IMG/VR virus record: IMGVR_UViG_3300017728_002360
From: a virus
Strand: one strand, 5' to 3'
Length of the DNA stretch: 64,000 nt
Shown here: one piece after another, positions 6,073-41,027 of the stretch
How positions within the stretch are numbered: position 1 is the stretch's first letter
Layout of the letters: the number at the start of each line of letters is the position of its first letter
The notes under the pieces: generated by a model
The model's input: the letters and a program-made list of their open reading frames with translations, nothing else
Told to the model about the DNA's origin: nothing
Database searches by the model: none
Made by a program: the position numbers and the translations under genes

Positions 6073-8096
6073 ATCGCTGTATTCTCCCCGGCATAGATAA
6101 TATAGTTAACAGTCATGTATGGGTTCATAACATCTATAGCTGTTCCCAATGCGTTGTTTGTTAACACACCACCTGAAGTAGGATATGCCTGACCTGCACC
6201 TGTGCCTGTCGGAGCATCGTATTGAATACCCTGTGCATCGTTTGGAGTACCTGTTACATCTCTTAAAGTATAGTACTGATCTCCACTTGGTCCTCTTAAA
6301 TCGTGTTCGTGTTCTGGTAAATTATTAATTGCAATAGTTTGGTTCTGTTGTCCTTCAACACTTCCCATTGTGTCGGCCGCCGCTGATGTTACAACGTTTG
6401 CTGATCCGCCACCCATGTTATCTTTACCTAGTGGGAATCTACCTCTTAAATCAGGTAATGCAAATTTACCTGCCGCTACCAATGATTGATCTTTAAAGTT
6501 GTAGCCAATCACGTTAAACAAGTTTTGATATGTTGCAATAGTTACTTCTTGTCCGTAACATAATACCCAATCAACTGGAGCAGTATCGCCACCAAATGGT
6601 GATATCATTCCAATCGGTAATGTAGGAATTGCTTTAAACAAATTAGTTCTTGAAACTTTATAAACACCAGTATCGCCTGTTACTCTGTTTAATAATATTT
6701 CGTCTGTTGATAATGAACTAGAAACTTCTGTTTTATTAGCAACAAATGTATTTGAAATCGTTGTTGTAAATGTTTTGCTACTTGCATCTTGTCCGTCAAA
6801 TGTAAATGACGGTGCAGTTACATCACCATTCATTTGGAATGTTGTTGAACTTGCAAGTTTGTCTGTTGATCCAGAACGTCCTGAAACTGTTCCTGTAACG
6901 TTACCTGTTAAGTTACCTATAAGGTTCTGTGCATAAACGTTTAACCATTGTTCGTTAGCTGTACCTAAGTTACGTGATGTATTTGCGTTTGGTACAATGT
7001 TTGCTGTAGTTGTAAGTCCTGAAAGGTTTGTATCACTGCCAACAAATAGTTTCTTAGCAATACCAACACCACCTTTAGTAATAATACTTCCTGTTGATAT
7101 AGTAGAAGCATCTGTAGTACCGTCAACCAATAATGAGTTTGAAAGTTGTATGTTTCCTGTAACGTCTAATGCTTGATCCGGACTTAAATTATTAATACCA
7201 ACTTTAGCAGTTGAGTCAATTCTCATTACAGTCGTTGCTGAACCGTTGTTGTTTACTCTTACGTCAATGTTTGATCCTGAAGTTTGGTGACTAATAATAC
7301 CCGCTTGTCCTTCAACTCCCATTGTAAAGAAACTTGAAGCACCAACTGTAATACCACCATTGTTTTTAACTGTTATCGGATATAAACTTTGTGAAGTACT
7401 GTCGTTACGCATAAAGTTTGTTGCAGGTATGCTTTCGTTATTAATAACTAATGCTTCTGCCTTTTCCGCAGTTCCGTAATATTTTCCTGCACCTGCACCT
7501 GTAATATCTGCTGAACTTAAATTAAAGCCAGGATTGATTGTTGTAAATCCTGCAATGGTTGTCTTAGGTGTAAATGCCGCTGTTGAATAAATTGCTAATG
7601 TCTTGGCACTAATTTCTATAACCAAACAAGTATAACTTACATTGTTTGTTCCAACTATTGATTCAGGCTTAACACCTGTTGACAGTCCATCACTAAATGT
7701 TGGACCTACTAATACCCAACCTGAACCTGTGTACAAGTATAGTTGTTGGTTATCAGTATCAACCCAAAGGTCGCCTGTAACTGATTGTGCCGCACCTGGT
7801 GCCGTTGTAGCTTTCTTTAATCCTGATGCACTAATCCAAGTAGTACCATCATATAATTTTAATTGATCAACACCTGCTGTATTATCATACCATAACTGTC
7901 CTTCTGTAGGATTGTTTGGTGCAGTTGTGTTTGCAAAATTTTCTAATAGGTGTAAAAAGTTTTCAGCAATAGCAGTACCATAAGCAGTTGTATTTCTGCC
8001 TGGCAGTGACAACGACGTCTGTTGGTTGATTGTATTATCTTCAACCGTTATGCTACCCTTGTTAGCAACGTCTGTATGGTTAACTGTATATGCCAT
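6069..8096 (-). CDS. short tail fibre with phage tail collar domain
   Basis: Same N-terminal module. C-terminal PIGMISPFGG...WVLCYGQ...LFNVIG...FALPDLRGRFPLG (collar) and LPEHEH...MNPYMTVNYIIY (gp12-like tip). Confidence 0.85.
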   Translation of the reverse strand: MAYTVNHTDVANKGSITVEDNTINQQTSLSLPGRNTTAYGTAIAENFLHLLENFANTTAPNNPTEGQLWYDNTAGVDQLKLYDGTTWISASGLKKATTAPGAAQSVTGDLWVDTDNQQLYLYTGSGWVLVGPTFSDGLSTGVKPESIVGTNNVSYTCLVIEISAKTLAIYSTAAFTPKTTIAGFTTINPGFNLSSADITGAGAGKYYGTAEKAEALVINNESIPATNFMRNDSTSQSLYPITVKNNGGITVGASSFFTMGVEGQAGIISHQTSGSNIDVRVNNNGSATTVMRIDSTAKVGINNLSPDQALDVTGNIQLSNSLLVDGTTDASTISTGSIITKGGVGIAKKLFVGSDTNLSGLTTTANIVPNANTSRNLGTANEQWLNVYAQNLIGNLTGNVTGTVSGRSGSTDKLASSTTFQMNGDVTAPSFTFDGQDASSKTFTTTISNTFVANKTEVSSSLSTDEILLNRVTGDTGVYKVSRTNLFKAIPTLPIGMISPFGGDTAPVDWVLCYGQEVTIATYQNLFNVIGYNFKDQSLVAAGKFALPDLRGRFPLGKDNMGGGSANVVTSAAADTMGSVEGQQNQTIAINNLPEHEHDLRGPSGDQYYTLRDVTGTPNDAQGIQYDAPTGTGAGQAYPTSGGVLTNNALGTAIDVMNPYMTVNYIIYAGENTAI

Positions 8097-8099
8097 CTA

Positions 8100-8714
8100 T
8101 TACGCCTCGTTAAAACCAGTTAATGATTGTACTCTAACTGTATAATCAATCTGGATTAGTCTGTTTAAACTTTTTTGTACTGGGTGGAATATTACGTGTG
8201 TTAATAATCTACCTGTACCACTTGTTGCATAACTTACTAGTCCTAGCTCATCAAATACATATAAGCTGTCTGAACTTGTTGCGTTATCCAATGCATCTTG
8301 TCCTGAAGGTTCACCGTAGTCTAGTAAACAAGTTGCAATAATATCTGTGTAATTTGTACCACTAACATGACGAGTTTCAATCTTATTTCTTGTAGGATCT
8401 GTGTTGTTGATTGAATTGTCATCAATTACTTTAGTGTATGTTTGGTTGTACAAACTAGCATTTGTTCCTGTGCTATTTGGTGAAAGGTATGTAATAATAC
8501 CAGTTGGATCAACTGATGTTCCACCATTACCAAAGTTCATGGAATATATCATTCCTTGCCCTTGGTTAGCTAAACTTTCTGCTAGTGAAATACTCATATT
8601 CTCATAGTGGATAGCATTTCGCTTATCCACAAAGATTTCACCGCTTTCTGGGTTATGTATCTTTATGTGTCCTTGCAAAAGAACTCCTGAATTGTCTTTA
8701 AAATTGTCTGTCAT
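8100..8714 (-). CDS. baseplate/virion structural protein
   Basis: 204 aa with FDELGL...LLTHVIFHPVQKSLNR; late promoter AATAAATA at 8733-8740 (minus strand). Confidence 0.65.
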   Translation of the reverse strand: MTDNFKDNSGVLLQGHIKIHNPESGEIFVDKRNAIHYENMSISLAESLANQGQGMIYSMNFGNGGTSVDPTGIITYLSPNSTGTNASLYNQTYTKVIDDNSINNTDPTRNKIETRHVSGTNYTDIIATCLLDYGEPSGQDALDNATSSDSLYVFDELGLVSYATSGTGRLLTHVIFHPVQKSLNRLIQIDYTVRVQSLTGFNEA

Positions 8715-8735
8715 GTTTATATCCTACAAGTGTAT

Positions 8736-11700
8736 TTATTTAGGTAACGCCACCTCTTTGTTTCTTAAGAACCTTCCGATGTTATTTTCTTGCAATCTTA
8801 GTGGAGTTCCGTTATCAGTCCATTTTTTACCTATGCGTCTAACCACCATTATCTTGGTGTTAATCGCTGGTGTGTCTGTTAGTGTTACTACTGGATTGAC
8901 TCCATCAACACTAAATTCTGCTGGTAGTGTAATATCTCCCTCTGGACTGTCCAAATCATTGCTTGGATTGAAGGAACTTATCGCATTCTTGCGTAATCTA
9001 CGTCCACCTACAAAAATCTCAAATTCGTTTACGTTGTTTGGTATAAAGTCTACAGTTACAGCTCTAGTTGAGCCATCTGCTGTAAATGTCTGTGTTCTCA
9101 TCTCATCTTTATACGGTACAGTCTGGTACACACTCTGATCTAGCACCTGTGCTCCAGCTGTGTGTAGTGTTTTAATACCTGTACCTAGTGTACCTCTGCG
9201 TAACTGTCTAATAGCACCTTCTTCTTTTAGATAGTATTCAATACGTTCTCCGCCAATGAATATGATGCCTGGAATACCTTTATCTCTGTTTGGCTGTGGT
9301 AATCCGTCTGCGTTAGTTACAAATATTTTAGTATCATACCAGTTTAAGTTCTGTGCTAGTGTGTATTCAACATCATCACCCAAACGTTTGAAGTGTGTTC
9401 TATTAAGCATATCTTTAAACTGTCTAAATCCAAACTTGCCAACTATTGTGCTGTTTGAGAAGTGTATCAACTCAATTACATCATTTGCATTAAGATCTAC
9501 TACAACTCTAATAGTTTGTTTATCATCTTGTAAGTAATAATCAACACTTGGAGTTAACAAGGCGCCATTTACTACTAACCAAACATATTCAGCATCGATG
9601 GCCGCTTTACGCAACTTGATGATACCGTTTGTAAGTTGATGATATTCTGTGTAATTATCTGTACCAACTGTAATTGGGTTACGTGTAACTATGTCTAAGT
9701 TTTCTCTTTCAATTTGTCTTACATCATGATTTGTTAACTGATATACAGTTACACTTTCATTGTTTGCAGGAGCAGTATCAAGATAAACTTTACCTGGAGT
9801 TTCAACCCATAAGCCGTTACCGTCTAAGAAACCAAATGCGTATTCGCCACCGTCAATTACATAAACATCTAATACATCACCGTCAACACCTATGTCAGAG
9901 AACAGTTCTACTGAAGCATTAAACGTATTCCAGTTCCAAGCAGTTGAAAGTGTAAGTTCTGTTCCGTTTAAGAAAACTCTAACTTGGTTTGCACCAACAC
10001 CAGCTTGAGTAATTTGATAATCTCTTAATTGATATTCTCTTACTCCTGTTGTTACTTTAAACTGTTGATTGTATCCTGCATTTAATACTTTGTTTCCAAC
10101 TTTAACAATTACATTATGTTCTAATGGTTTTTGATTTAGTGGAGTTTGTGCAAGAGCAAATTCTTTGTTTGTTCCGTCACCTGTAAATGTATCTGTTGCA
10201 ATCTGTGAGAATGATTTACTTGCACTATCAAATATTGCATATTGTATTACAGTACTGTTAAGAGGTGCAGTACCTAGTTTAAACACACACATTCCTTTTT
10301 GTGCATAAGTGCCATCTGTTTCTGCCATGTCAACGTTTGTTGTTACACCGTCAACTGTTAAGAAGAAACTTAATGTTGATTTAAATGGAATGCTTGTAAC
10401 AAACTGTGCAGTTGAACCGTCACCTATAAACTGATCAACATCAAGTATTTTCTCACCATTGTTACTCATTGTAATAATGTGTACCTGTTGTTTGTCACCT
10501 GGTGCAGTTGTTAATTTAAGTTTTTTGTTTTGATAGTCAACTGTAAACTCTGAGTGTGATAAAATAGTGCCATGTACTTTTACCCAAACGTCCTTTTGAC
10601 TTAATGGTACGTAATTAATATCAAAGTCTTTATTAGTTCCGTCACCTAAATAGTTGTAACTATGTAACACACTTGAACCGTCTCCAGTTCTTTCATAAAC
10701 CTTAATATCTAGTGTATCTAAAACTTGTCCTGGAACAAGCTCTTCAGGTCCTTTTGAAGTTAGTGGAGTAACAAATCCGTCACCGTCAATAACAATTTCT
10801 TCTGCACTAATACCTTTGGCAGTAGCATAAGCTAGGTCACCACCTTGTACTAATGTATCATATCCATCTGGATCTGGAATAAACGAACCGTCACTTGATG
10901 CTTTTCTAATTACAATAACATCATTTGCTACTGTTGGAATTTTTTCTTCGTCTAACTGTACTGTAGTTTGTCCTGTTCCTGTAATACTTTGCATTACAGC
11001 ATTTACATTTGTAGGAACTGTTGAACCATCGTATTGCGGATCATCTACTCTAATACCATTTTTGTATACGTTATATACTACGCCATTCGCTAATGGTTTA
11101 GCAAGTGCAAATACATTTGTACTTCCGTCTAATACAAAAACTTCATCTTCGTATGTGTTATCATAAGTGTCCCAAGTTGTTGTGTAGTAAGGATCACTAG
11201 CCCAACCTGTACCTGCTCCAAATGTGAAACTCTTAACTTCAATTCCTCCGTAATCAATACCGTCCATTAACTGCGATACGTCATTTCCTAACATACCTGT
11301 TGATGGAGTATAGAACAAGTTAATTCTATCCTGTGCTTGTAGCATAGTAATTTCTTTAGAATACTTAACAACAATCACAGCATTATTTGCCGGAGGTTCA
11401 GCAAACATGATTTGTCCTTTGGTTCTAACATAGGACTTATCTGAGTATTCAACGTTGCTGTATGTGTATTCACTTTGTAATGATTCAACACCATCTACAG
11501 TAACTTCTATTTGAGTCTTTCTTAAATCCATTGGCCATGTTAGGTTAAATGTTGTTTTACTTCCTGTACCTGTAAAGTTTTCTGTCTGCGATAGTGTAGT
11601 AATTAAGAACGTTCCTGTTACTCTATCAAACTTAGATACGTGATGTAATGCTCTAACCTTGCTGTTACCTAACTGTGCTGAAACAACTGCCGCAACCGAA

Positions 11701-14700
11701 CCTGTTGACTGTGTTCCATTAATGCTAACTGTAGGAGCACTTAGATATCCACTTCCTGGATTTGTAACTGTAATATATTTTATTGCTCCGCCTGTACCAA
11801 GTGTTGCTGTTGCAGTTGCACCTGATCCGCCGCCGCCTGTAAATTTAATTACTGGTACATCTAAATAACCTGTTCCGCCATTCTTGATGTTTACCGTTAA
11901 TACTTCAAAGCCAACATTTTCAGCCCAATACTTGTTAGGGTAATCAACTATGTTTGCATCTTGTCCATATATTAAATCATCTTTAACTTTTAAACTTGAA
12001 GGAACAATCTTACCATCATCAATGCTGTAAGCTGGTGGTATATCAAAGTCCGTTACACCTGTTGCAGTTGGATCTGTTTTTGTGTAAGAACTAATGTATT
12101 CTCTAATTTTTGTTTTGTATGGTTTAGCTTCTTCAACAAAATCTTCATAACTAGGTAAGCTATCATTTTGGAAAGTAATTTTCTGTGTTAAATCACCTGC
12201 GTTATGTTTAGCTTTCAAGAATGAAGTTTTAAATGCCCAATCAACCATTGGTTGTTCGCTAAACGCATATCTTAAACTTGCAAAGAACAGTTCGTTATAG
12301 TGTACAGCAAGATCATTTATAAAGATATCATCTCTTAATGCTGTTAAGATTTTTCTTAACTCTAGTGTTGGTTGATCGTCATAGAATGAAGTATCATAAC
12401 TTAATCCGTCGTAACCAATATTACTACTTGCTGGATCGTATAATGCTCTTGATAAAGCTATTGTTCCGTTCTGTCTACCAACAGTTTTATATTTTGTTGT
12501 GTAGTCTGTACCGATATCGCTGATCTTTTCTAACAGTAACCAACCACCTGATCCTATTGTACTAATTTTTACAATATCACCAACTGTGTCAGTTAAACTT
12601 TCTAATTCATATGAATAATCAACTAGGAAATTAATATCTGTAAATTCGCTGTAACCTATGTCATACCAGTCTGTGTAACTCCACCATTTAGTTGTGTCGT
12701 AACTTGAACTTGATGTTCTTTCCCATAATTTAGTTGTGTTGTTGTAGGCATATATTGCCCACTTGTTACTAACTGTTTCATCAACAGCAACAAGTACACT
12801 ATATTTTCTTACTGACAATGTTGTTGTGCTAGGATATCCTGAACCTGCATTCTTAACAGCAACATTTGTAATGGTACCTGCTGTATTCATTGTAATTGTA
12901 ATTTCTGCACCGCTACCGTTACCTACTAATCCAAACTCGTATGTTGGAACTGTAACGTAACCTTTACCACCATTTGCAATATCAACTCTTTCAAGTTTGC
13001 CGTTTACAAACACAGGTGTTAGTACTGCTGGAATAACATTTGATACTCCAACAAACTGTAGTTCTGCATTTGTTGTAACTGACTTGTCAAACTGTTTGCT
13101 TAACAATGTTGGTGTAGGATCTTTGCTTAAGAAAGCACTTAGATTTAATTCGTCAACAATTAGGTTTGCTTTTAATGTAGTGTTAGCTCTTTCAACAACT
13201 TGTTTAAGTGCTTCAACTCTATTTTTAAACATACCTTGTCTTGGTCTGTCTAGTATACCATATTTTTGTTTTTCACTTAAGATAGTGTCTGGCACCGGTC
13301 TTTCGTTTGTATCAACACCAATTAAACTGTCATACCATTTACGTTCAATATCTGCATTTGGTTTACTTGTACCTAAACCTTCTGACATTAACTGATACTG
13401 ATTGTGTATGTTAATTTCTTTATTATCAATAGTCCAATAACGGAAGTTGATTGCATTGTCTGGTCCACTTACAAGTGATTCACAGTTGTATAAACCAAAT
13501 TTATTGTTGCTGTAAAGTGCAACAAATTTTTGTCCCATTGCCATTGGATCCGTAATTAATTGTGCTACGTCATAAGCAGAAGTTTTTCTCCACTCTAAGT
13601 CTGGAATAACTTTTGTATTCTTAACCCAATAGTAATATTTGTTACTAAATCCTTTTGATATTTCATTGTAAACTTGTACTTGTACAAAGGTGTTTACATC
13701 TTTAGCTGTACCACTTATACCTTTTACAAGACCTTCTTCTGTGTCTGCTGTTTCGTTCCATTGTGTTGGAGTAAGTGTAGATTCAACCCATTCATAAACA
13801 TCAATACTTGCTCCAGTAAATAATTTATTCCAGTTAGCTGTATTGTAAATTATGTTTCCTTGGTATGGGTTTACAAATTTAGCTGTGCTAATATCCCACC
13901 ATAGTCTGCCTACGTTTGCATTATTCCAATAATTTTCTGGATCAATTACAGTATTAGGTGTGTTAGTTCCGTTAGTATAAACTGCTGGATCATAATGTGT
14001 TTTGAAAGTTAATTCTTCCTCAGCCGCTCCGGCAATTTTTCCTTGTATAGGATCAATGTAATCTATTTTTTGTGCAATAGGATTAGGTCCCATTGTGTAA
14101 ATGAATACGCCTTTAAATTTAGTTAAGTCAACTTGGTCAGTTGGTGTGTGCAAAGTTTGCCAAGGTAGAGCTTCTCTATCTCTCTTGTAATCTAGTAACG
14201 TACCTATGTAGTTGTTCCAAGTAGATGAATCTTCCATATCTCTAACTGAAAGCTCTGGCATCGGAACGTAAACGTGATTCTCATTAAACAATAAGTATTC
14301 GCCAAATCTTTCTACTGAAGCATTTTTGTAATTAAACTTCTCTGCGTATAATAATTTGTTTTGTACCTTCTGATACATAAACACTTGTCCGCTATCTGTG
14401 TTTACACTTTCAAATTGTGTTAAGTTATTATCAAATGTAGTTGACAACACATCAAACGTTGTGCTTGTTACAAGGTCTCCGCCTTTAGAACTTACAATTA
14501 AATCATTGCCTTCAAAGTCTATCGCGGCTCCAAATCTTTCAGCTACATCATTTTCAGGACTGTATAAAGTTTGTGTTTGACTAAACACACCGCCTACACT
14601 AGTGTATACAAATACCTTACCGTTATTGTCTGAACGTGTATCGTCTTCTGGTGCACCTACGGCTAACATATCTCCTGTGTCGTTTAGACTAATTGCACTT

Positions 14701-33698: not shown

Positions 33699-34715
33699 TT
33701 GTTTAAGAAAGTAGCAGTATTTACAGATATCCATTTTGGATTAAAGAGTAACTCTAAGATCCATAATGATGATTGTGAAGAATTCATTGATTGGTATATA
33801 GAGCAGGCGAAAGAAAACGGTTGTGAGACCGGAATCTTTTGTGGTGATTGGCATCATAATAGAAATAGTTTGAACATTACTACAATGGACGCAACTATTA
33901 GAAGCCTTGAGAAACTAGGAAAGGCTTTTGAAAAGTTTTATTTCTTTCCTGGTAACCACGATCTATATTACAAAGACAAAAGAGATATTAATTCAATTGA
34001 CTTCGGTAGACACATACCGGGTATTACAATGGTCAACGAAATGATGACCGAAGGTGATACTACACTTATACCTTGGTTGGTTGGTGATGAATGGAAAAAG
34101 ATTCCTAAGATAAAAAGCAAATACATATTTGGTCACTTTGAACTTCCAAACTTTTATATGAATGCTATGGTACAGATGCCTGACACAGGTGAACTACAAG
34201 CAGATCATTTCAAGAACCAAGACTATGTATTCAGTGGTCACTTCCATAAACGCCAAGTAAAAGGTCCAGTTCATTATATAGGTAATGCTCTTCCTCACAA
34301 TTACGCAGATGCTTGGGATGATGAACGTGGTATGATGATACTTGAAGCTGGTGGTGAACCACAATATATCAACTGGTGGAACTGTCCGAAGTATAGAACA
34401 GTAAAACTTTCAAGATTATTAGATGAGAAAGACACACTTATAAAAAGTAAAATGTATCTACGTGTTACATTGGACTTGCCTATTAGTTATGAAGAAGCAA
34501 ACTTCATTAAAGAAACATTTATGAAGGATTATGACTGTAGAGAAATTAGTCTTATACCTAATACACAAGATGATGAAATAAATTCAGACATTGATATCAC
34601 AAAGTTTGAAAGTGTGGACGAAATTGTCGCAAAAGAGATTGAAGCAATAGACTCAGACAGCTTTGACAAAGCAAAACTACTGAGCATATATAGAGATTTG
34701 AACAAAGATGATTAA
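33699..34715 (+). CDS. gp47: recombination endonuclease subunit (Mre11/SbcD-like)
   Basis: Metallophosphoesterase motifs TDIHFG, GDWHH, GNHD, GHFE and SGHFH; TTG start. Confidence 0.93.
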   Translation: MFKKVAVFTDIHFGLKSNSKIHNDDCEEFIDWYIEQAKENGCETGIFCGDWHHNRNSLNITTMDATIRSLEKLGKAFEKFYFFPGNHDLYYKDKRDINSIDFGRHIPGITMVNEMMTEGDTTLIPWLVGDEWKKIPKIKSKYIFGHFELPNFYMNAMVQMPDTGELQADHFKNQDYVFSGHFHKRQVKGPVHYIGNALPHNYADAWDDERGMMILEAGGEPQYINWWNCPKYRTVKLSRLLDEKDTLIKSKMYLRVTLDLPISYEEANFIKETFMKDYDCREISLIPNTQDDEINSDIDITKFESVDEIVAKEIEAIDSDSFDKAKLLSIYRDLNKDD

Positions 34716-36480
34716 GATAAAAAGCATTACAGTAAAAAACTTTATGAGTGTGGGTAATACTACACAGGCAGTCGACTTTAACAAACAACAACTAACGTTA
34801 GTGCTTGGTGAAAACTTAGATCAAGGAGGTGACGATTCTGGTTCACGTAACGGTACAGGTAAAACTACAATAATTAACGCATTGTCTTATGCTCTGTACG
34901 GCCAAGCACTAACGAACATTAGAAAAGATAACCTAGTTAACAAAACTAATAATAAAGGAATGTTGGTTACACTAACATTTGACAAAGACGGCAAGGAATA
35001 TAAAGTTGAAAGAGGCCGTAAGCCTAACACTATGAAGTTCTTTATTAATAATGAAGAACAAGAGCTTACAGATCAGTCACAAGGTGATAGTCGTAAAACA
35101 CAACAAGACATAAATGAACTGCTAGGTATGAGTCATGATATGTTCAAGCATATTGTGGCACTTAATACTTACACAGAGCCCTTCTTAGCACTGAAAAACA
35201 ATGACCAACGTGCTATTATAGAACAGTTACTTGGTATTACAATACTTTCTGAGAAGGCAGACTTGTTACGAGAACAAACACGTATTACTAGAGATAAACT
35301 TACTGAAGAAAATGCTAGGATATCAGCAGTAACAAGCAGTAATGAAAAGATTAAAGAAAACATTGAACGTTTACACAGCAGACGCAAGGCTTGGATTGCA
35401 CAAAACAAACAAGACTGTGATAAACTTGCAAAAGCAATTAAAGAACTAGAACAACTAGACATCGACAATGAACTAGAAGATCACGAAAAACTAAAAACGT
35501 GGGAAGAAAGCACAAAACATCTTAACAACCTTAAAAAAGAAAAGTCAACAGTTGAACGTGCATTGGAACAAGCTGATAACAATGTAAACAAACTTGGTAA
35601 GGACTTGGATGATCTAGAAAGTGCCAAGTGTTATGCTTGTGGTCAAGAACTACATGATGACAAACTTGAAGAAATGAAAGACAAGTTACAAAAGGATTAT
35701 GGTGATGCCCATGTTTATCAAACTAGCATGGCAGACAAACTACAAAAGGTAGAAAAGCTGATCGAAGAGGTTGGTGACCTTGACTCTAAACCTAATACAT
35801 TCTATGAAACTGCCAAAGAAGCATACCAACACAGAGGTAACGTTGATAGTTTAACAAAGAGCTTACAAGATAAGACAGATGAACTAGATCCATATCAAGA
35901 ACAGATTGATGATTTAGAGAAAACTGCAATACAAGAAGTTAATTGGGATACCGTAAACGATCTTAATAGCACAAAAGACCACATGGACTTCTTATACAAA
36001 CTGTTAACAAACAAAGACAGCTTTATACGTAAGAAGATCATAGACCAGAATTTAGCATACCTAAACAACAGACTTACATACTACTTAGACAAGCTAGGAC
36101 TTCCGCATACAGTGGTGTTTAAGAACGATCTAAGTGTTGAAATAACACAACTAGGACAGGATCTAGACTTTGATAACCTAAGTAGAGGTGAACGTAATAG
36201 ACTTATACTTGGTATGAGTTGGGCATTCCGTGATGTATGGGAAAGTTTATATCAAAACATCAACTTATTGTTTATTGATGAGTTGGTTGATAGCGGTATG
36301 GATGCAAATGGTGTTGAAAACAGTATGAGTGTTCTTAAGAAGATGGGTAGAGAACGTCAGAAGAACATTTACCTTATATCGCACAAGGAAGAACTTGCTG
36401 GTCGTGTAACTAACGTACTAAAAGTTATTAAAGAAAACGGATTTACGTCATATGACAATGATGTTGAAATAATGCAATGA
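34708..36480 (+). CDS. gp46: recombination ATPase subunit (Rad50/SbcC-like)
   Basis: Walker A NGTGKTT, zinc hook CYACG, signature LSRGE, Walker B LLFIDE and ISH. Confidence 0.95.
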   Translation: MIKIKSITVKNFMSVGNTTQAVDFNKQQLTLVLGENLDQGGDDSGSRNGTGKTTIINALSYALYGQALTNIRKDNLVNKTNNKGMLVTLTFDKDGKEYKVERGRKPNTMKFFINNEEQELTDQSQGDSRKTQQDINELLGMSHDMFKHIVALNTYTEPFLALKNNDQRAIIEQLLGITILSEKADLLREQTRITRDKLTEENARISAVTSSNEKIKENIERLHSRRKAWIAQNKQDCDKLAKAIKELEQLDIDNELEDHEKLKTWEESTKHLNNLKKEKSTVERALEQADNNVNKLGKDLDDLESAKCYACGQELHDDKLEEMKDKLQKDYGDAHVYQTSMADKLQKVEKLIEEVGDLDSKPNTFYETAKEAYQHRGNVDSLTKSLQDKTDELDPYQEQIDDLEKTAIQEVNWDTVNDLNSTKDHMDFLYKLLTNKDSFIRKKIIDQNLAYLNNRLTYYLDKLGLPHTVVFKNDLSVEITQLGQDLDFDNLSRGERNRLILGMSWAFRDVWESLYQNINLLFIDELVDSGMDANGVENSMSVLKKMGRERQKNIYLISHKEELAGRVTNVLKVIKENGFTSYDNDVEIMQ

Positions 36481-36689
36481 TCAACGACGATACACACGAT
36501 AAACTAACCAAAGCATATTTGGAATATTACAAGGCCAACGAAGCATGGGAAATACGCAAGAGCGAACGTACCAAAAGATCGGCAAGAAAATGGTTAAGTG
36601 AGATACGTAGACTGTGTAGCGACCGTAGAGTTGAGATCATAGAAGAGTACAAAGCCAAAAAAGAAACGTCTAGCAGTGATACTGAGTAA
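36477..36689 (+). CDS. hypothetical small helical protein
   Basis: 70-aa ORF with ATGA overlap on the gp46 stop. Confidence 0.7.
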   Translation: MINDDTHDKLTKAYLEYYKANEAWEIRKSERTKRSARKWLSEIRRLCSDRRVEIIEEYKAKKETSSSDTE

Positions 36690-36697
36690 GTATCAAT

Positions 36698-37120
36698 ATG
36701 CAATGGACATATAAGGGCAAATCAATAGAAACATTACCAGAGGATTGTGAAGCATTCGTGTATCTAATCACGAACACAACCAACAATAGAAAATACATAG
36801 GTAAGAAACTAGCAAAGTTTAAAAAAACAAGACCACCTCTTAAAGGTAAGAAGAATAAACGTAGAAGTAAAGTTGAAAGTGACTGGAAGGACTATTGGGG
36901 TTCATCAGATCACCTACAACAGGACGTACAACAATTAGGCGAAGACAAGTTTACAAGAGAAATACTATATTACTGTGAATCAAGAGGCATAGCAAGTTAC
37001 TTAGAGGCAAGAGAACAGTTTGAACGTAGGGTATTAGAAACAGATGACTACTACAACGGCATTATAAACGTTAGGGTAGGTGGATCTAAGATACTGCGTG
37101 AAGGCCTAAAAGGCAAATAA
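36698..37120 (+). CDS. minimal GIY-YIG family nuclease
   Basis: AFVYLITNTTNNRKYIGKK...YWGSS...FTREIL......A.YLE.REQ...YYN contains the GIY/YIG, Glu and Asn motifs. There is no C-terminal DNA-binding domain. Confidence 0.8.
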   Translation: MQWTYKGKSIETLPEDCEAFVYLITNTTNNRKYIGKKLAKFKKTRPPLKGKKNKRRSKVESDWKDYWGSSDHLQQDVQQLGEDKFTREILYYCESRGIASYLEAREQFERRVLETDDYYNGIINVRVGGSKILREGLKGK

Positions 37121-37189
37121 GCCACTTTTACAACAACAAAAATTACTGTACACTAATATACTGTGTAGGCAAATTAAATTTCATCTATA

Positions 37190-37612
37190 TAGCAACATTG
37201 TTTGGTCGGGGTAGCTCGACTTACCTTGAGGTCACATCGATCTGTGACTGGATACTGGTACGTTGCACGGCTTGATGCTAACGTAGGCATTAAAAGATCG
37301 TGGCTCTGAGAAAAAGCAACCACAACGTTAATATACTTTGCTTAACAGGGGTATATTAGTGTTCCGAGACTATTGCGAAGGCTGTAGTAGGGGGTTGGCG
37401 AGTTTCCGCCTCCGTACATATTATATGTAATCTACTTTGTTAAGATGGTACGCTTATCTCACATGATGGCTATTATCGACTTCGTCCGGAGACGGGCGAA
37501 GTATGGCTCAACTATCTACATGATGCAAAAGTGCTTCGCACTTATATTAATCATACATAAGAAAAAAGTGTTTGAGCATAGCGAAAACACAGATGAGCTG
37601 TTTGCTCATCTA
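37190..37612 (+). ncRNA. candidate large structured non-coding RNA (~430 nt), family not recognised
   Basis: No credible ORF. More than 10 adjacent stems with frequent G-U pairs in + orientation, a GAGA tetraloop and a possible pseudoknot (see findings). Confidence 0.6.
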
Positions 37613-37619
37613 CTAGACA

Positions 37620-37814
37620 CTAGTGTAATTCAGGATCACGTCCATAACGGAACGCATCACTATCATACACTTCGACAGCTACAACTTCGTATTGCTTGTT
37701 AGGGTTTACATCCACTAACTGTGCAACAGTTGAATCTGCTTCATACTCATCACTGCACTGAGTCACAACCTCTTTGGTGTTACACTCAATAACATTATAT
37801 CTTGTTTGAGGCAT
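37620..37814 (-). CDS. hypothetical protein
   Basis: 64-aa ORF with late motif TAAATA 6 nt upstream of its ATG. Confidence 0.65.
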   Translation of the reverse strand: MPQTRYNVIECNTKEVVTQCSDEYEADSTVAQLVDVNPNKQYEVVAVEVYDSDAFRYGRDPELH

Positions 37815-37849
37815 ATAAGATATTTAAGAGGTCTACGAGATGAATTATG

Positions 37850-37857
37850 TATAAATA
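37850..37857 (+). promoter_or_regulatory. T4-type late promoter TATAAATA (representative of ~15 NNTAAATA sites)
   Basis: The TAAATA core also precedes genes at - 1817, 4245, 8733, 27009, 27474, 32740, 37821, 42163, 44280 and + 44253, 48737, 49704, 53811, 54391, 57019, 58516. This fits the gp55 encoded here. Confidence 0.85.
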
Positions 37858-37879
37858 TAAAGTAACAGGAGAGCAAACC

Positions 37880-38434
37880 ATGAAAATAACGCAAATAACA
37901 AGCGAAAACACGTTTAATGAAGCTCCCGGTGGTAATGTCTTAGGGAACGTTGCACGTAAAGTAGGTGCAAAAGTGGCTGGCGCCGTAGGTGCCAAAGGCA
38001 CCGCCGCAGGAATGACAGGTAAAAACGATGCGAACGCAAAAGCCAAGGAATTGTTTGTACAATACAGAGGATTTATGGGTCAAACAGGTGGTAACCCTAA
38101 ACAACCAACAGTTGATCAAGTATCTAACTTTATGAAGAAACAAGGATTACCATTAAACAGATTAAAAGGTCTACAAGGACAGCTAACACCTAAACAGGTT
38201 GATGACATCTTACAGAAAACTTCACAAGATAGTTTTAATTCTGCAGATGGACAAGCGGCCGCAGGAACAGAACCAGGATCCCCTGGAGATCCTAACGCAC
38301 CGAAACCGGGTGCCGGTGGTGCTGGCGCACCAGCAGGTGGACAAGCAGGTGCAGGTGGCATACCAGCTAACATTCAAAAAGCTATTGATAGCTTAGATGC
38401 TAATGGTAAAAAAGAACTAGCGGCACTATTGTAA
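37880..38434 (+). CDS. putative internal head/virion protein (start revised from 37847 to 37880)
   Basis: TATAAATA at 37850-57 and SD AGGAGAG precede the in-frame ATG at 37880 (MKITQITSE...); Gly/Ala-rich. Confidence 0.65.
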   Translation: MKITQITSENTFNEAPGGNVLGNVARKVGAKVAGAVGAKGTAAGMTGKNDANAKAKELFVQYRGFMGQTGGNPKQPTVDQVSNFMKKQGLPLNRLKGLQGQLTPKQVDDILQKTSQDSFNSADGQAAAGTEPGSPGDPNAPKPGAGGAGAPAGGQAGAGGIPANIQKAIDSLDANGKKELAALL

Positions 38435-38444
38435 GGACAGCAAA

Positions 38445-41027
38445 ATGAAACTAGGCGAAGTTACACACTACAATTTAAAATCAGAACAGATACTAGCAGA
38501 GGGTTGGCAAGATCTTAACGAAGCACAACGCATATATGTTGGTAAGTGGGAAAGAGATGTTTGGCCTTTAGTAGAAGGACTTAATAAATTATTAGAAGCT
38601 GATCTTGATCCTAAACAGATTGATAAAATCTTTAGTGATGCAGAACAAGTTGCAATAGATTCAGGCAACAACAAAACTGCATTAGGTAAGGCAGGACAAG
38701 TAGTAGGTGACCAAGCTAAAAAACTTACAGACCAAATTAACAAACTAGCCGATGCGGCACAACAAAGTGGACCAATTAAAAACTTTGATGCACAGTTTGA
38801 AAAACTAAAAGCACAATTAAAAAAGAAACTACAAGGTAATCCAGCAGGCCAGAAGATACTTACAATGGTCGATGGTTACGGAGAGTTTGCAAAAGGCAAT
38901 CCGGCCAAGGCGGCATTTATCATTGGTGCAATGACTTCAGTACTTGCGTTTGCAAGTGGAGGTATTGTAAGTGGTGCGGCAATTGGTTTCTTTTTAAAAC
39001 TAGCAAGTAACACACTTAAAGGTGATAAACTTTCAACAGCAGTTGGTAAAGGTGTTAAAGGCGCGGCACTTGGTGCGGTGGCTGGTGCTATTGGTGATCA
39101 AATTGGTGAATTATTACCGCCAGAGATTACAAACACATTTATTAATGATGCATCAGGCGAAATTGATATTACAAAACTAGACGGAATGAGTGCTACAAGC
39201 ATGGAAGATCTAACTGCTGAATCGGCCAAAGAGATCATACAGTCAAGAAGTGCCATGGAAGAATTATTAGCACGAGGTAACCTAGATGCTGATGCAGAAG
39301 AAGTTTTACAAGGACAGCTTGACCAGGTAAATGATAAGATACGTGAAATAGGTGGTGCATCAGTAAATGATTCTGTTGATGCAATACAAGGCGAGTTTGA
39401 TATCAAAGGTACAGATGTTAACATAGATAAGACTACAACCACATCAAACCAAGACGCAGGTAGTACAGTATCAGATACAGAAGTTGTTGCCGAGCTTGAT
39501 GCAGAACAACTTAATGACGCAGGAATAAATTCAGCAGACTTTCCAGACAACGCATGGATTACTGAAAACACACAAAAATTATTAGATGCTGGTTTGTCAG
39601 AAGAAGACATTGAAGCATTACAAAATGCACAAGGATTTAACAGAGCATTAGACCAAAAAGAATTCTTAAACACACGTATATCAGCGTCAACTTCTATAGA
39701 GGTTGGAGACAGCCTACAGGTTGATGGTGTACCAGACGAAATTAAAGTTGGAGAGGTATTTAAATCAACAGTTAGTAAAACACTACCAGACGGAACTGAA
39801 TACACTGGAATAGTAGACGTATCAATTGAAGGTGTAGACGCAGACGGAAATGCTGTTTACCAAATGAAAAATGTGTTTGTAAATCCTAATCCATTTACAG
39901 AAAATCTAGACAAGGCTCTTGAAGCTTTACCAGATGATGTAAGAGAAGAATTATATGATCAAATATTCAAAGGAACAGTTTCGGGTTCAATGGAAACAGC
40001 AGTTAACGATACAGCGGCCAACATTGTAAAAGCCGCGGCGGCAGTTGCACTAGGTGGTGCATTAGCAAAATCAGAATTTGTAGAGCCTGAGAAAAAAGAA
40101 GAGTCAATAGAACGACACAACGAAATGATTTACGAGTACGTTGAGTACTTAGAAGAAACAATGAACGAAGGACCTGCACTAGACAAAATGAAGGCGGCGG
40201 CAATGGCTGGCGTTAAAAAAGCAGGTAGCCTTACACAAAAAGGAATGACCCAAGTTGGTAAAGGCATGGACAAAGCCGGAGCCGCTGTTGCAGGTGGCAT
40301 AAGCAAAACTGCCGCAGGTATTAAGAATCAAGGTAAACAACTTGGAAACAAAGTTACAAAAGAAAAATTAATGAAGGCGTGGAACAAAGCAGGCAAGCCA
40401 ACAGACACAGGAAGTATTATTAATATTTTAAGTGATGCTGGTATGGACGATGAAGCCATTGGCACAGTTGGAACACAGTCAAACATTAAGTTAGCAAGAC
40501 CTCAAGCTGATACGGGAGATGATGCCGGAGCAAGTGCTGGTACAGATCCCAAAGCTGGGGCAGAAGCAGAACCAGTTGATGCTAACAAAGACGGCAAAGA
40601 CGACAAAACAGGCAAGCCAATTACTAAACCAGTTGATGCTAACAAAGACGGTAAAGATGACAAAACAGGCAAGCCAATAGAGCCTGAAAAAGATGCTACA
40701 CTAGGTAAACCAGGTGCTGGCGGAGCCGCAGTAGGCGGAGCTCATGCAAATAAGAAACCTATAGTACCAGGTGGTGCTAAAGCAGGTGCAGGTGCTACTC
40801 CAGGTAAACCAGTTGATGTAAAATCATTAGCAGGCGATATACAAAAGGCCGGTGTTGCTGACGCTGTTAAACAACAACTATCGCAACCAGCTAAAGCAGG
40901 TAGCGGTGGAGATCTTGCAAGTGGTATGAAAGTAGATTTACCTACACTAGCTAAACAAATTAGTGATGCGGGTATACAAGATAAAGTAAAAGCAAGTCTA
41001 ACACAAAAACAACCAGCTACTGCCTAA
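38445..41027 (+). CDS. large putative internal virion (ejection-like) protein
   Basis: 860 aa; hydrophobic glycine-zipper segment AAFIIGAMTSVLAFASGGIVSGAAIGFF, acidic centre and low-complexity C-terminus; lies in a late transcript. Confidence 0.55.
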   Translation: MKLGEVTHYNLKSEQILAEGWQDLNEAQRIYVGKWERDVWPLVEGLNKLLEADLDPKQIDKIFSDAEQVAIDSGNNKTALGKAGQVVGDQAKKLTDQINKLADAAQQSGPIKNFDAQFEKLKAQLKKKLQGNPAGQKILTMVDGYGEFAKGNPAKAAFIIGAMTSVLAFASGGIVSGAAIGFFLKLASNTLKGDKLSTAVGKGVKGAALGAVAGAIGDQIGELLPPEITNTFINDASGEIDITKLDGMSATSMEDLTAESAKEIIQSRSAMEELLARGNLDADAEEVLQGQLDQVNDKIREIGGASVNDSVDAIQGEFDIKGTDVNIDKTTTTSNQDAGSTVSDTEVVAELDAEQLNDAGINSADFPDNAWITENTQKLLDAGLSEEDIEALQNAQGFNRALDQKEFLNTRISASTSIEVGDSLQVDGVPDEIKVGEVFKSTVSKTLPDGTEYTGIVDVSIEGVDADGNAVYQMKNVFVNPNPFTENLDKALEALPDDVREELYDQIFKGTVSGSMETAVNDTAANIVKAAAAVALGGALAKSEFVEPEKKEESIERHNEMIYEYVEYLEETMNEGPALDKMKAAAMAGVKKAGSLTQKGMTQVGKGMDKAGAAVAGGISKTAAGIKNQGKQLGNKVTKEKLMKAWNKAGKPTDTGSIINILSDAGMDDEAIGTVGTQSNIKLARPQADTGDDAGASAGTDPKAGAEAEPVDANKDGKDDKTGKPITKPVDANKDGKDDKTGKPIEPEKDATLGKPGAGGAAVGGAHANKKPIVPGGAKAGAGATPGKPVDVKSLAGDIQKAGVADAVKQQLSQPAKAGSGGDLASGMKVDLPTLAKQISDAGIQDKVKASLTQKQPATA
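40570..40678 (+). repeat. 2 x 57-bp-period direct repeat encoding PVDANKDGKDDKTGKPI
   Basis: aaccagttgatgctaacaaagacgg(c/t)aaaga(c/t)gacaaaacaggcaagccaat occurs at 40570 and 40627. Confidence 0.9.

Follow-up and report, generated by a model that had tools for sequence, protein, structure and literature searches.

A structured RNA of ~420 nt is encoded at positions 37190-37612 (+) of the window, the 64,000-nt stretch of DNA analysed here, which comes from an uncultured marine T4-like phage, directly 3' of a gene for a small GIY-YIG nuclease and on the same strand. The structured RNA is real and conserved, and it represents a family that is new to Rfam and present in aquatic T4-like phages. We estimate a probability of roughly 60% that this segment is the gene for a stable, trans-acting structured RNA that is independent of the neighbouring nuclease. 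An independent non-coding RNA had been listed only as an alternative in an earlier note on this DNA, which favoured a ribonucleoprotein, possibly RNA-guided, nuclease; it is the alternative that fits best. The RNA lies at a convergent gene boundary in a neighbourhood of recombination and replication genes, and its immediate neighbours are as follows.

36477..36689 (+): orf70, encoding a small, very basic protein, directly upstream of the nuclease gene
36698..37120 (+): nuclease gene, encoding a 140-aa stand-alone SegE-type GIY-YIG domain (phrog_447)
37121..37189 (+): spacer, specific to the window's closest relatives and absent in most relatives
37620..37814 (-): gene for a 64-aa protein, convergent, bounding the RNA

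The gap between the nuclease gene and the convergent gene (37121-37619) spans 499 nt and, as had been remarked before, holds no credible ORF. A protein-coding gap was rejected, since an 85-aa plus-strand ORF (37445-37702) is not kept among relatives and no ORF is conserved. Uncultured marine T4-like phages carry the RNA in abundance; more than 300 related contigs were taken into the analysis. Covariation among relatives, proposed earlier as a check of the downstream RNA, was found throughout the element: in a test of the whole RNA across 28 relatives, 61 of the 117 proposed pairs showed compensatory changes, and 90.4% of cells were paired, compared with 38-43% in a control with slid partners. 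Folding of the gap compared with shuffled sequences gave z scores of −4.07 on the plus strand and −2.28 on the minus strand. G-U pairs are abundant and compatible with the plus strand only, as the earlier note had observed in favouring RNA over DNA cruciforms; on these pairs and the z scores a minus-strand RNA was rejected. Both ends of the RNA are conserved helices, P1 at the 5' end and H14 at the 3' end. The architecture can be divided into three domains and a terminal hairpin.

37190..37291 (+): domain A, in which P1 encloses P2, P3 and P4 and is followed by P5
37192-96/37262-66 (+): P1, GCAAC/GUUGC, with compensatory changes
inside P1 (+): P2, GGUCGGG/CUCGACU, with compensatory changes
inside P1 (+): P4, GGUCACA/UGUGACU, with compensatory changes
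37274-78/87-91 (+): P5, with a conserved CUAAC loop
37292..37445 (+): domain B, the double-pseudoknot core, comprising P6, P7, PK1, PK2, Py, P9 and P10
within domain B (+): P6, GUGG/CCAC
37324-39/37348-63 (+): P7, 16 bp
37341-47 x 37438-44 (+): PK1, pseudoknot CUUAACA x UGUUAAG
37367-70 x 37402-05 (+): PK2, second pseudoknot, AGAC x GUUU, the latter in the P9 loop
37384-87 x 37432-35 (+): Py, long-range helix GUAG/CUAC, 3/4 pairs compensatory
within domain B (+): P9, GGCG/CGCC, invariant and so uninformative on pairing
within domain B (+): P10, UACAUA/UAUGUA
37444..37590 (+): domain C, the twin-box domain, comprising two boxes, Pb1, P11, P12, a linker and P13
37455-68 (+): box 1, in a large loop closed by Pb1
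37479-37502 (+): P11, 10 bp with a GAGA (GNRA) cap, most pairs invariant and so uninformative on pairing
37513-25 (+): box 2, 3' of P11
within domain C (+): P12, AAGUGC/GCACUU
37544-66 (+): AU-rich linker, variable
37568-90 (+): P13, hairpin with tandem G-A pairs and a GNRA-type loop
37591..37612 (+): H14, 8-bp terminal hairpin AGAUGAGC/GCUCAUCU, 5/8 pairs compensatory

All but one of the consecutive helices drawn from the single sequence in the earlier note are present, most of them with compensatory changes among relatives; the exception is an ACUAU/GUAGU stem, whose bases are instead engaged in the Py helix and in PK2. In domain A, P1, P2, P3 and P4 all carry compensatory changes and are 94-100% paired, while P5 is weaker, being 67% paired in the MAFFT alignment with visible AUGC/GCAU, AGC/GCU and AGAC/GUCU variants. 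The pair test of domain B yielded compensatory changes in 34 of 49 pairs and 91.8% of cells paired against 40-48% with slid partners. P7, previously given as 13 bp, is longer by three pairs. The pairing proposed between CUUAACA in its apical loop and UGUUAAG downstream is real, six of the seven PK1 pairs being compensatory, and PK2 is compensatory in 4/4 pairs in the domain B test and 3/4 in the whole-RNA test. Both pseudoknots were recovered again in an alignment made with a covariance model and without fitting to either of them. The resulting core is compact, consisting of two pseudoknots and a three-helix junction, with a 5' domain of four helices before it and the twin-box domain after it, and is rich in invariant unpaired bases; the invariant sequences UAAAAGAU and GCGAAGGCU both lie within domain B. 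In domain C, P11, P12 and P13 draw support from the pair tests, most of P11 being invariant. H14 is probably the 3' end of the RNA. A U-run follows the hairpin on the plus strand in relatives such as contigs L287 and L194. A terminator scan of the window also picked out this region (37613-37589), reading on the minus strand as a terminator of the convergent gene. The hallmarks of the RNA, namely the double-pseudoknot core, the two identical boxes around a helix with a GNRA cap and the terminal hairpin with its GA tandem, are all supported by covariation or concerted change.

The two boxes carry the same 8-13-nt word, one on each side of the GNRA-capped helix. Pb1, the stem closing the box 1 loop, has limited support, and the matching closure stem of box 2 is invariant, hence uninformative on pairing. 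Among relatives at least six variant words occur, and within each variant the two copies are identical or nearly so: the words shared by both boxes are ACAUGAUG, GCAUGAUG, AGAUAAUG, ACAUGAAG and ACAUAAAG, and the near-identical pairs are CGUGAUGAC/CGUGAUAAC and AGAUGAUG/AGAUGAUA. This concerted change, seen in sequence comparison, suggests that the boxes engage two copies of one partner. Complements of the boxes showed no excess of matches over chance elsewhere in the window, and the AU-rich linker had no above-chance match there.

Database and literature searches did not place the RNA in any known family. Rfam 15 gave no match in 36600-37900 at E values up to 10, so that the Rfam search suggested earlier named no family, and a search with eleven diverse loci related to this one was likewise empty at E values up to 1. 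At the gathering score, nothing was found in the window besides a glutamine riboswitch. No Rfam model of group I intron, tmRNA, RNase P, GOLLD, ROOL, HEARO or Polynucleobacter-1 matched at the RNA, and ARAGORN detected neither a tRNA nor a tmRNA. A group I intron was also rejected on gene layout, since orf70 is closed by a stop codon of its own and the gene beyond the RNA is encoded on the opposite strand. A blastn search of the gap against 50,697 phage records returned chance matches only, and we found no published description or catalogue entry for the RNA family.

The nuclease is a bare catalytic domain. The protein matches Pfam PF19835 (SegE_GIY-YIG) at E 2.8e-35 (121.7 bits against a cut-off of 25) over residues 3-123 and model positions 1-123 of 123, and phrog_447 at E 1.2e-37. 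No second Pfam domain was found in the 140 residues, only ~17 of which follow the catalytic domain, in agreement with the earlier description of a GIY-YIG protein without a C-terminal DNA-recognition domain. Across 20 homologs the mean column identity is 76% and the motifs are invariant (F20-V21-Y22, Y33-(I/V)-G35, R87/E88, E103/E106 and N120); we infer that these residues correspond to the catalytic residues of I-TevI. The AF2 model of the protein has a pLDDT of 84.8, and its closest PDB structure is the I-TevI catalytic domain, a weak match (Foldseek E 0.16, probability 0.92). The very basic segment reported earlier is present but is not an insert: it is part of the SegE family domain, nearly invariant among the 20 homologs, and is predicted from the model to form a conserved beta-hairpin. 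Upstream, orf70 gave no Pfam or PHROG family match, but its homologs stand before the GIY-YIG gene at most of the related loci inspected, and homologs of the 64-aa gene occupy the same place and orientation in many related loci.

Within the marine clade, the RNA and the nuclease gene are always adjacent. Among the matches listed, the nuclease gene lies beside the RNA in 101/101 RNA-side contigs with room for it and in 82 of ~87 true P13-motif contigs. Taking the closest gp46 relatives listed as the starting point, the nuclease gene is present in all 77 that are long enough for the slot, and the RNA in 59 of the 59 long enough to show it. Neither an empty nuclease site nor presence-absence polymorphism was found among these 77 gp46 relatives, a situation atypical for a selfish homing gene. 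A comparison of the nuclease with gp46, made to look for a recent horizontal sweep of the nuclease gene, revealed no pairs with near-identical nuclease and divergent gp46; the identities are only weakly correlated (Spearman 0.14), so that the comparison says little about such a sweep. Only 4-12 nt separate the nuclease stop codon from P1 in most relatives, and gene and RNA are therefore plausibly co-transcribed, judging by this arrangement of the sequence. In the window, a consensus scan alone picked out a weak sigma70-like site in the spacer (TTTACA-16-TACACT, 37127-37154). The neighbourhood is not rigid: contig L287 has kept the RNA with a PDDEXK_15 (PD-(D/E)XK) nuclease in the GIY-YIG slot, and in contigs L194, L202 and L283 the nuclease gene lies 1159-1299 nt upstream of the P13 motif, a 296-aa ORF filling the gap in L194. 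The absolute pairing in the marine clade counts against independence of the RNA, as does a start usually within ~10 nt of the stop codon, which would also fit a functional unit, and so does an unusually conserved nuclease without a DNA-targeting domain, whose specificity may come from elsewhere.

Outside the marine clade the link between the RNA and GIY-YIG homologs breaks, so that the linkage looked for from the start holds only in part. Three cultured jumbo phages were matched by a covariance model of the RNA core (domain B): RaK2 with 34.3 bits over the full length, 121Q with 26.4 bits and GAP32 with 19 bits. These matches carry compensatory changes. Searches for a homolog of the GIY-YIG nuclease in the same three phages found none, which is weak evidence of absence. 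In 121Q a terminator precedes a 722-nt gap without ORFs, and it is in this gap that the RNA is found, together with a sigma70-like promoter of its own; read base by base, this copy has no twin boxes. Conversely, phage Melnitz carries a 74% identical nuclease behind nrdB, with a gap of only 148 nt and no RNA, and nuclease homologs of ~40% identity occur without the RNA in S-RIM14, IME-SM1 and B23. Their sites vary, being behind nrdB in Melnitz and S-RIM14, near other RNR genes in B23 and near head genes in IME-SM1; nuclease homologs adjoin other classic homing targets, such as nrdB or a tRNA gene. The covariance model found no match to the core in T4 or S-RIM14, and its sole match in HTVC008M, inside the terminase gene, was taken as false. 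HNH homing-endonuclease genes flank the RNA in 121Q, RaK2 and L287, so that nucleases of three unrelated families (GIY-YIG, PD-(D/E)XK and HNH) are found beside it, which is what a conserved target of homing would lead one to expect. A search by pattern for bacterial copies of this subtype in 185,579 species genomes produced six matches, of which one was convincing, on a 23-kb MAG contig where the nuclease gene is also present; matches in Vibrio mimicus and Puniceispirillum were dismissed as chance. A weak match (17.9 bits) was seen in a 4-kb Deltaproteobacteria MAG.

These distributions bear directly on explanations that tie the RNA to the nuclease. The RNA could be a cofactor, scaffold or inhibitor of the upstream enzyme without guiding it, for example by holding two protomers on the twin boxes or by keeping a domain-less nuclease inactive until needed. 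Strict adjacency on the same strand with near-zero spacing in hundreds of marine contigs speaks for such a role, as do a nuclease that lacks a DNA-binding domain yet has an invariant basic beta-hairpin, the small PDDEXK_15 nuclease that fills the slot where GIY-YIG is missing, and the two identical boxes, which would suit a dimer. We nevertheless consider it unlikely, given the RNA without a detected copy of this nuclease in 121Q, RaK2 and GAP32, the nuclease genes of Melnitz, S-RIM14, IME-SM1 and B23 that have no such RNA, the 121Q copy without twin boxes, the extra gene that can separate the two, and the lack of clean co-variation between the box words and the basic hairpin of the protein. 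Quite unlikely, too, is a version in which the RNA would be the working partner of whichever small domain-less nuclease precedes it (GIY-YIG in most phages, PD-(D/E)XK in one contig), the boxes docking two protomers and the body setting substrate choice or restraining the enzyme; if true, such nuclease-RNA docking would define a type of particle not seen before and without relation to CRISPR or OMEGA systems. In the RNA-guided form of the earlier proposal, part of the RNA would pair with a target in DNA or RNA and so steer the GIY-YIG domain, as omega RNAs do for IscB and TnpB. A gene order like that of TnpB with its 3' RNA and a nuclease without a targeting domain speak for it. It is highly improbable: there is no hypervariable segment at either end, the only variable unpaired stretch being the internal AU-rich linker, for which the window holds no match; complements of the boxes are not in excess there; no transposon or element boundary is present; guided nucleases of the RuvC or HNH type are not related to this protein; and RNA and nuclease each occur alone elsewhere.

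A cis-acting 3' UTR element, controlling stability, termination or translation of the nuclease or operon mRNA and not acting in trans, would account for the short distance from the stop codon in most relatives, which leaves no room for an intergenic promoter, and for the hairpin in which the RNA ends at the convergent gene boundary. However, ~420 nt with two pseudoknots and many invariant unpaired bases exceed the needs of mRNA protection, the 121Q core follows a terminator and has a promoter of its own, and the RNA persists where the upstream gene has been replaced or moved; a cis role is improbable on these grounds. Very unlikely as well are an RNA that primes replication at an origin or through an R-loop, and a new ribozyme or ligand sensor whose activity would reside in the double-pseudoknot core. 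The RNA does adjoin recombination and replication genes at a convergent boundary, and its core, with many invariant unpaired bases, is conserved from marine to enterobacterial jumbo phages; but cumulative GC skew shows no turn at the RNA, conserved tertiary folds are not a known need of R-loop primers, Rfam revealed no similarity to a ribozyme or riboswitch family in the window or the eleven loci, and the window has no downstream gene for the RNA to regulate.

Under the preferred reading of an independent, trans-acting RNA, the element would be transcribed as the last part of a gp47-gp46-orf70-nuclease unit. The RNA would be freed or stabilised by its own fold and would end at H14. It may act as a scaffold or decoy whose twin loops hold a single kind of sequence-specific partner, most probably a protein, either as two copies or as a dimer. 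The GIY-YIG gene would be a fixed neighbour, a domesticated free-standing Seg-type gene that once homed beside a conserved RNA gene, or alternatively a nuclease of the recombination module; in either case it would be dispensable for RNA function and would not be guided by the RNA. Close linkage of a nuclease gene and an RNA can stem from conserved gene order or from homing beside a conserved RNA gene, a caution for screens aimed at new RNA-guided nucleases. Bench tests of the RNA's function are now possible, since jumbo phages in culture that infect E. coli, Klebsiella or Cronobacter carry the core.

Few large RNAs combine several pseudoknots with many invariant unpaired bases, and those known are ribozymes, riboswitches, ribonucleoprotein cores or self-assembling particles. 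GOLLD (RF01998) and ROOL (RF03087) are large ornate RNAs often found on phages and prophages (Kretsch et al. 2025, PMC12286853). The RNA described here resembles them as an intricate, pseudoknotted, phage-borne non-coding RNA of ~400 nt or more, but differs in having no Rfam match, in its double-pseudoknot core and twin boxes, and in not lying near tRNA genes here. An orphan RNA motif, Polynucleobacter-1 (RF01718), is likewise known from aquatic bacteria and metagenomes (PMC2864571). With the HEARO or omega RNAs of IscB and IsrB, and with TnpB, the locus shares an RNA of several hundred nucleotides beside a same-strand small nuclease gene, in the TnpB systems also at the 3' end of the gene; unlike OMEGA systems, it has a GIY-YIG rather than a RuvC/HNH nuclease, has no guide segment, mobile-element end or Rfam match, and other phages have its RNA or its nuclease singly. 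The T4 Seg proteins and I-TevI offer the nearer parallel on the protein side, namely a SegE-family catalytic domain encoded by a free-standing gene beside a conserved RNA gene; segB sits inside the T4 tRNA gene cluster. The present nuclease differs from them in consisting of the catalytic domain only (140 aa), without a DNA-binding domain, and in being fixed, rather than sporadic, in all 77 of the nearest relatives listed that are long enough for the slot. CsrB and RsmZ are multi-site decoy RNAs that bind dimeric proteins via repeated loop motifs. Like them, the RNA repeats one short word in separate loops whose copies evolve in concert; in contrast to them, it has two copies only, its word is AUCU-ACAUGAUG rather than GGA, and the word is embedded in a pseudoknotted body. 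The concerted change of the two boxes provides a precise handle for a partner search.

The structured RNA that an earlier note proposed downstream of a small GIY-YIG nuclease gene in this uncultured marine T4-like phage, related most closely, among named phages, to Methylophilales phage Melnitz and other Kyanoviridae, is real. It fills about 420 nt (37190-37612, + strand) of a 499-nt gap that, as that note described, holds no credible ORF, and no ORF there is common to relatives. The neighbouring features are:

33699-34715, +, homolog of gp47 (T4 recombination nuclease subunit)
34708-36480, +, homolog of gp46 (T4 recombination nuclease subunit)
36477-36689, +, orf70, a small basic ORF after gp46
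36698-37120, +, 140-aa nuclease ORF
ORF-free gap of 499 nt, after the nuclease ORF
37620-37814, -, 64-aa gene on the opposite strand, bounding the gap

Beyond the convergent 64-aa gene, two genes (37847-41027, +) encode Ala/Gly/Lys-rich low-complexity proteins of 195 and 860 aa, the former without a match in Pfam or PHROG.

Compared with shuffled sequences, the gap folds with z = -4.07 on the + strand and z = -2.28 on the - strand. A search with the nuclease as query yielded more than 588 related viral contigs, of which 80 were taken; the sequence just 3' of the nuclease gene is conserved in more than 60 of these, at 99% to 66% identity, and a search of this stretch for an ORF shared among relatives found none. 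RNAalifold on 12 sequences revealed compensatory changes in 42 of 101 pairs. At many paired positions G-U gives way to G-C or A-U in other sequences, a pattern possible on the + strand only; together with the folding scores, this upholds the placement of the RNA on that strand, originally proposed from G-U pairs. The full structure, derived from column-pair statistics and inspection, was counted on 28 sequences aligned with plain MAFFT, no two of them reaching 97% identity. Sixty-one of its 117 pairs changed on both sides, supplying the covariation by which the proposed RNA was to be judged; 90.4% of cells were paired, versus 38-43% when the 3' partners were slid by 1-3 columns, and none of 500 shuffles matched the observed covariation score. 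The structure, on the + strand throughout, comprises a 5' helical domain (A), a double-pseudoknot core (B) and a domain with two boxes (C):

37192-96/37262-66, P1, domain A, encloses P2, P3 and P4
P5, domain A, after P1, with a conserved CUAAC loop
invariant UAAAAGAU, start of domain B
37300-03/20-23, P6, domain B
37324-39/48-63, P7, domain B, 16 bp with an 8-nt loop
P7 loop with 37438-44, pseudoknot PK1, domain B, 6 of 7 pairs compensatory
37367-70 with P9 loop 37402-05, pseudoknot PK2, domain B, 4 of 4 pairs compensatory, 100% paired
invariant GCGAAGGCU, domain B
37384-87/37432-35, long-range helix Py, domain B, encloses P9 and P10
37455-68, box 1, domain C, a loop closed by helix Pb1
37479-37502, GNRA-capped P11, domain C
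37513-25, box 2, domain C
P12, then a variable AU-rich linker, domain C
P13, domain C, hairpin with tandem G-A pairs and a GNRA-type loop
37591-37611, H14, terminal hairpin at the probable end of the RNA

PK1 is the pairing that had been suspected of forming a pseudoknot, while a proposed ACUAU/GUAGU hairpin is unsupported, its bases forming parts of PK2 and Py. A covariance model of domain B built without the pseudoknots (R1) was used to align 21 much more diverse members, and both pseudoknots hold on that alignment (77% paired versus 35-49% slid; 97% for PK2). R1 covers domain B of one subtype only, so that a missing match in a distant phage is weak evidence. Type-2 variants (such as contigs L057, L067 and L012) have only domain C and P13 in common with the window.

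In every subgroup seen, the two boxes flanking P11 share one word: ACAUGAUG in most, and otherwise GCAUGAUG, AGAUAAUG, ACAUGAAG or ACAUAAAG; the pairs CGUGAUGAC/CGUGAUAAC and AGAUGAUG/AGAUGAUA are near-identical. The two copies change together so as to stay alike, and do not complement each other; palindromy is inconsistent among the words, and the window contains no excess of their complement. Most simply, both loops would be recognised by a single partner, present twice.

Residues 3-123 of the nuclease match SegE_GIY-YIG (Pfam PF19835) over all 123 profile positions (E 2.8e-35). Mean column identity among 20 homologs from related contigs is 76%, the GIY, YIG, Glu and Asn positions being invariant. 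The best solved match to its AlphaFold model (pLDDT 84.8) is the I-TevI catalytic domain, a weak one (Foldseek E 0.16, probability 0.92). As first described, the protein lacks a DNA-binding domain and has a basic segment; this segment is no insertion relative to the family, being a nearly invariant predicted beta-hairpin (residues 40-60). PHROGs assigns the protein to phrog_447, stand-alone proteins of about 148 aa whose label, "NAD synthetase", is doubtful. The label is widespread among stand-alone GIY-YIG proteins of about 140-150 aa, also in cyanophage GenBank records (e.g. KX349302.1, 163364-163813); it appears to be an annotation error passed on between records, Pfam and the predicted fold both pointing to a GIY-YIG nuclease.

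Searching from the RNA side with an exact 23-base motif returned at least 105 viral contigs; among the matches listed, a GIY-YIG gene lies directly upstream on the same strand in all 101 with upstream room. A second, broader motif, P13, was counted in new contigs among the matches listed: 82 carry the nuclease gene directly upstream, 24 are truncated, in three it lies 1159-1299 nt before the motif, and eight have no GIY-YIG match. Six of these eight are chance matches in unrelated GC-rich DNA, contig L218 looks truncated, and contig L287 has a true RNA without a GIY-YIG gene. In contig L194, one of the three with the longer distance, a 296-aa ORF occupies the interval between nuclease gene and RNA. 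A search from gp46, blind to both elements, found the nuclease gene in 77/77 of the nearest relatives long enough for the slot and the RNA in 59/59 of those long enough for it. In most subgroups P1 starts 4-12 nt past the nuclease stop codon; the window and its closest kin have an additional spacer of about 70 nt before P1, with a weak sigma70-like site. Given this spacing and the clade-wide adjacency, gene and RNA are likely co-transcribed. The very basic orf70, which has no family, lies before the nuclease gene in most of the relatives examined; its homolog is retained in L287 despite the nuclease replacement there. It may bind RNA or DNA as a partner of some component of this module.

Outside the marine clade the association does not hold. 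R1 matches E. coli jumbo phage 121Q (90639-90696) within a 722-nt ORF-free gap behind sigma-factor gene 167, with a terminator and a promoter-like site before it; both pseudoknots are readable there and the twin boxes absent. Further matches, in Klebsiella phage RaK2 (34.3 bits, whole model) and Cronobacter phage GAP32 (19 bits), show compensatory changes in Py and P9. In RaK2 (NC_019526.1) the full-length match (7160-7316, +) is overlapped by ORF014w, a hypothetical protein (6672-7325, -) that is probably a spurious ORF called over an RNA gene; a second, weaker match lies at 280012-280074. A match in HTVC008M, within the terminase gene, was taken as false. No homolog of the 140-aa nuclease was found in 121Q (E up to 0.01) or in RaK2 and GAP32 (E up to 0.001), which is weak evidence of absence; the same search was blank in T4, which carries seg genes.

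Conversely, the nuclease also occurs apart from the RNA. In Melnitz (L001) a nuclease of 74% identity is encoded behind nrdB with a gap of just 148 nt after it, and R1 has no match in the genome. That gap (4439-4586) starts with CAUAGCAAC and contains UUUGAGCG, words similar to those of the RNA's first helix and P13 hairpin, and by this resemblance may be a deletion remnant. Homologs of about 40% identity in S-RIM14 (near nrdB, a tRNA gene next), IME-SM1 and B23 precede gaps of only about 110-210 nt; R1 found no match in T4 or S-RIM14. In L287 a PDDEXK_15 nuclease (PF24608) takes the usual place of the GIY-YIG gene before the RNA, and the order at 8213-12774 is gp46, an HNH-NUMOD3 homing endonuclease, the orf70 homolog and the PDDEXK_15 nuclease. 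Its gp46 (975 aa versus 590 aa) has, judged by eye only, an intein-interrupted look. This region is a hotspot of selfish nuclease genes. HNH endonuclease genes also lie less than 1 kb from the RNA in 121Q and RaK2.

The RNA is best read as a gene in its own right, whose core predates the link to the GIY-YIG nuclease and is found more widely. Nucleases of three unrelated families cluster round it, a pattern also known from tRNA, rRNA and ribonucleotide-reductase genes, where conserved sequence draws in free-standing homing endonucleases. Within the marine clade, the GIY-YIG gene is now fixed and highly conserved; it may have been domesticated, perhaps to serve the gp46/gp47 module as a structure-specific nuclease. 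An RNA-guided nuclease, the idea first put forward, is not borne out: a variable end segment, a target match within the window and obligate linkage were all looked for and none was found. A looser partnership within the marine clade, the RNA serving the nuclease as scaffold, inhibitor or dimer dock, seems unlikely. We favour, with a probability of roughly 0.6, an RNA that would arise at the end of the gp47-gp46-orf70-nuclease unit and act as a stable trans-acting molecule, its pseudoknotted body presenting two identical loops to which a single kind of partner, probably a protein, would bind in two copies.

No description of the RNA was found in the literature. ARAGORN detected no tRNA or tmRNA, and a group I intron is ruled out by context because flanking exons are absent. 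A comparison with Rfam 15, called for at the outset, placed the RNA in no known family, giving no match in its region at E up to 10 or across eleven diverse related loci at E up to 1. The sole Rfam match anywhere in the window is a glutamine riboswitch aptamer (RF01739; 53826-53878, +; 54.9 bits versus a gathering score of 35), within the late or structural region.
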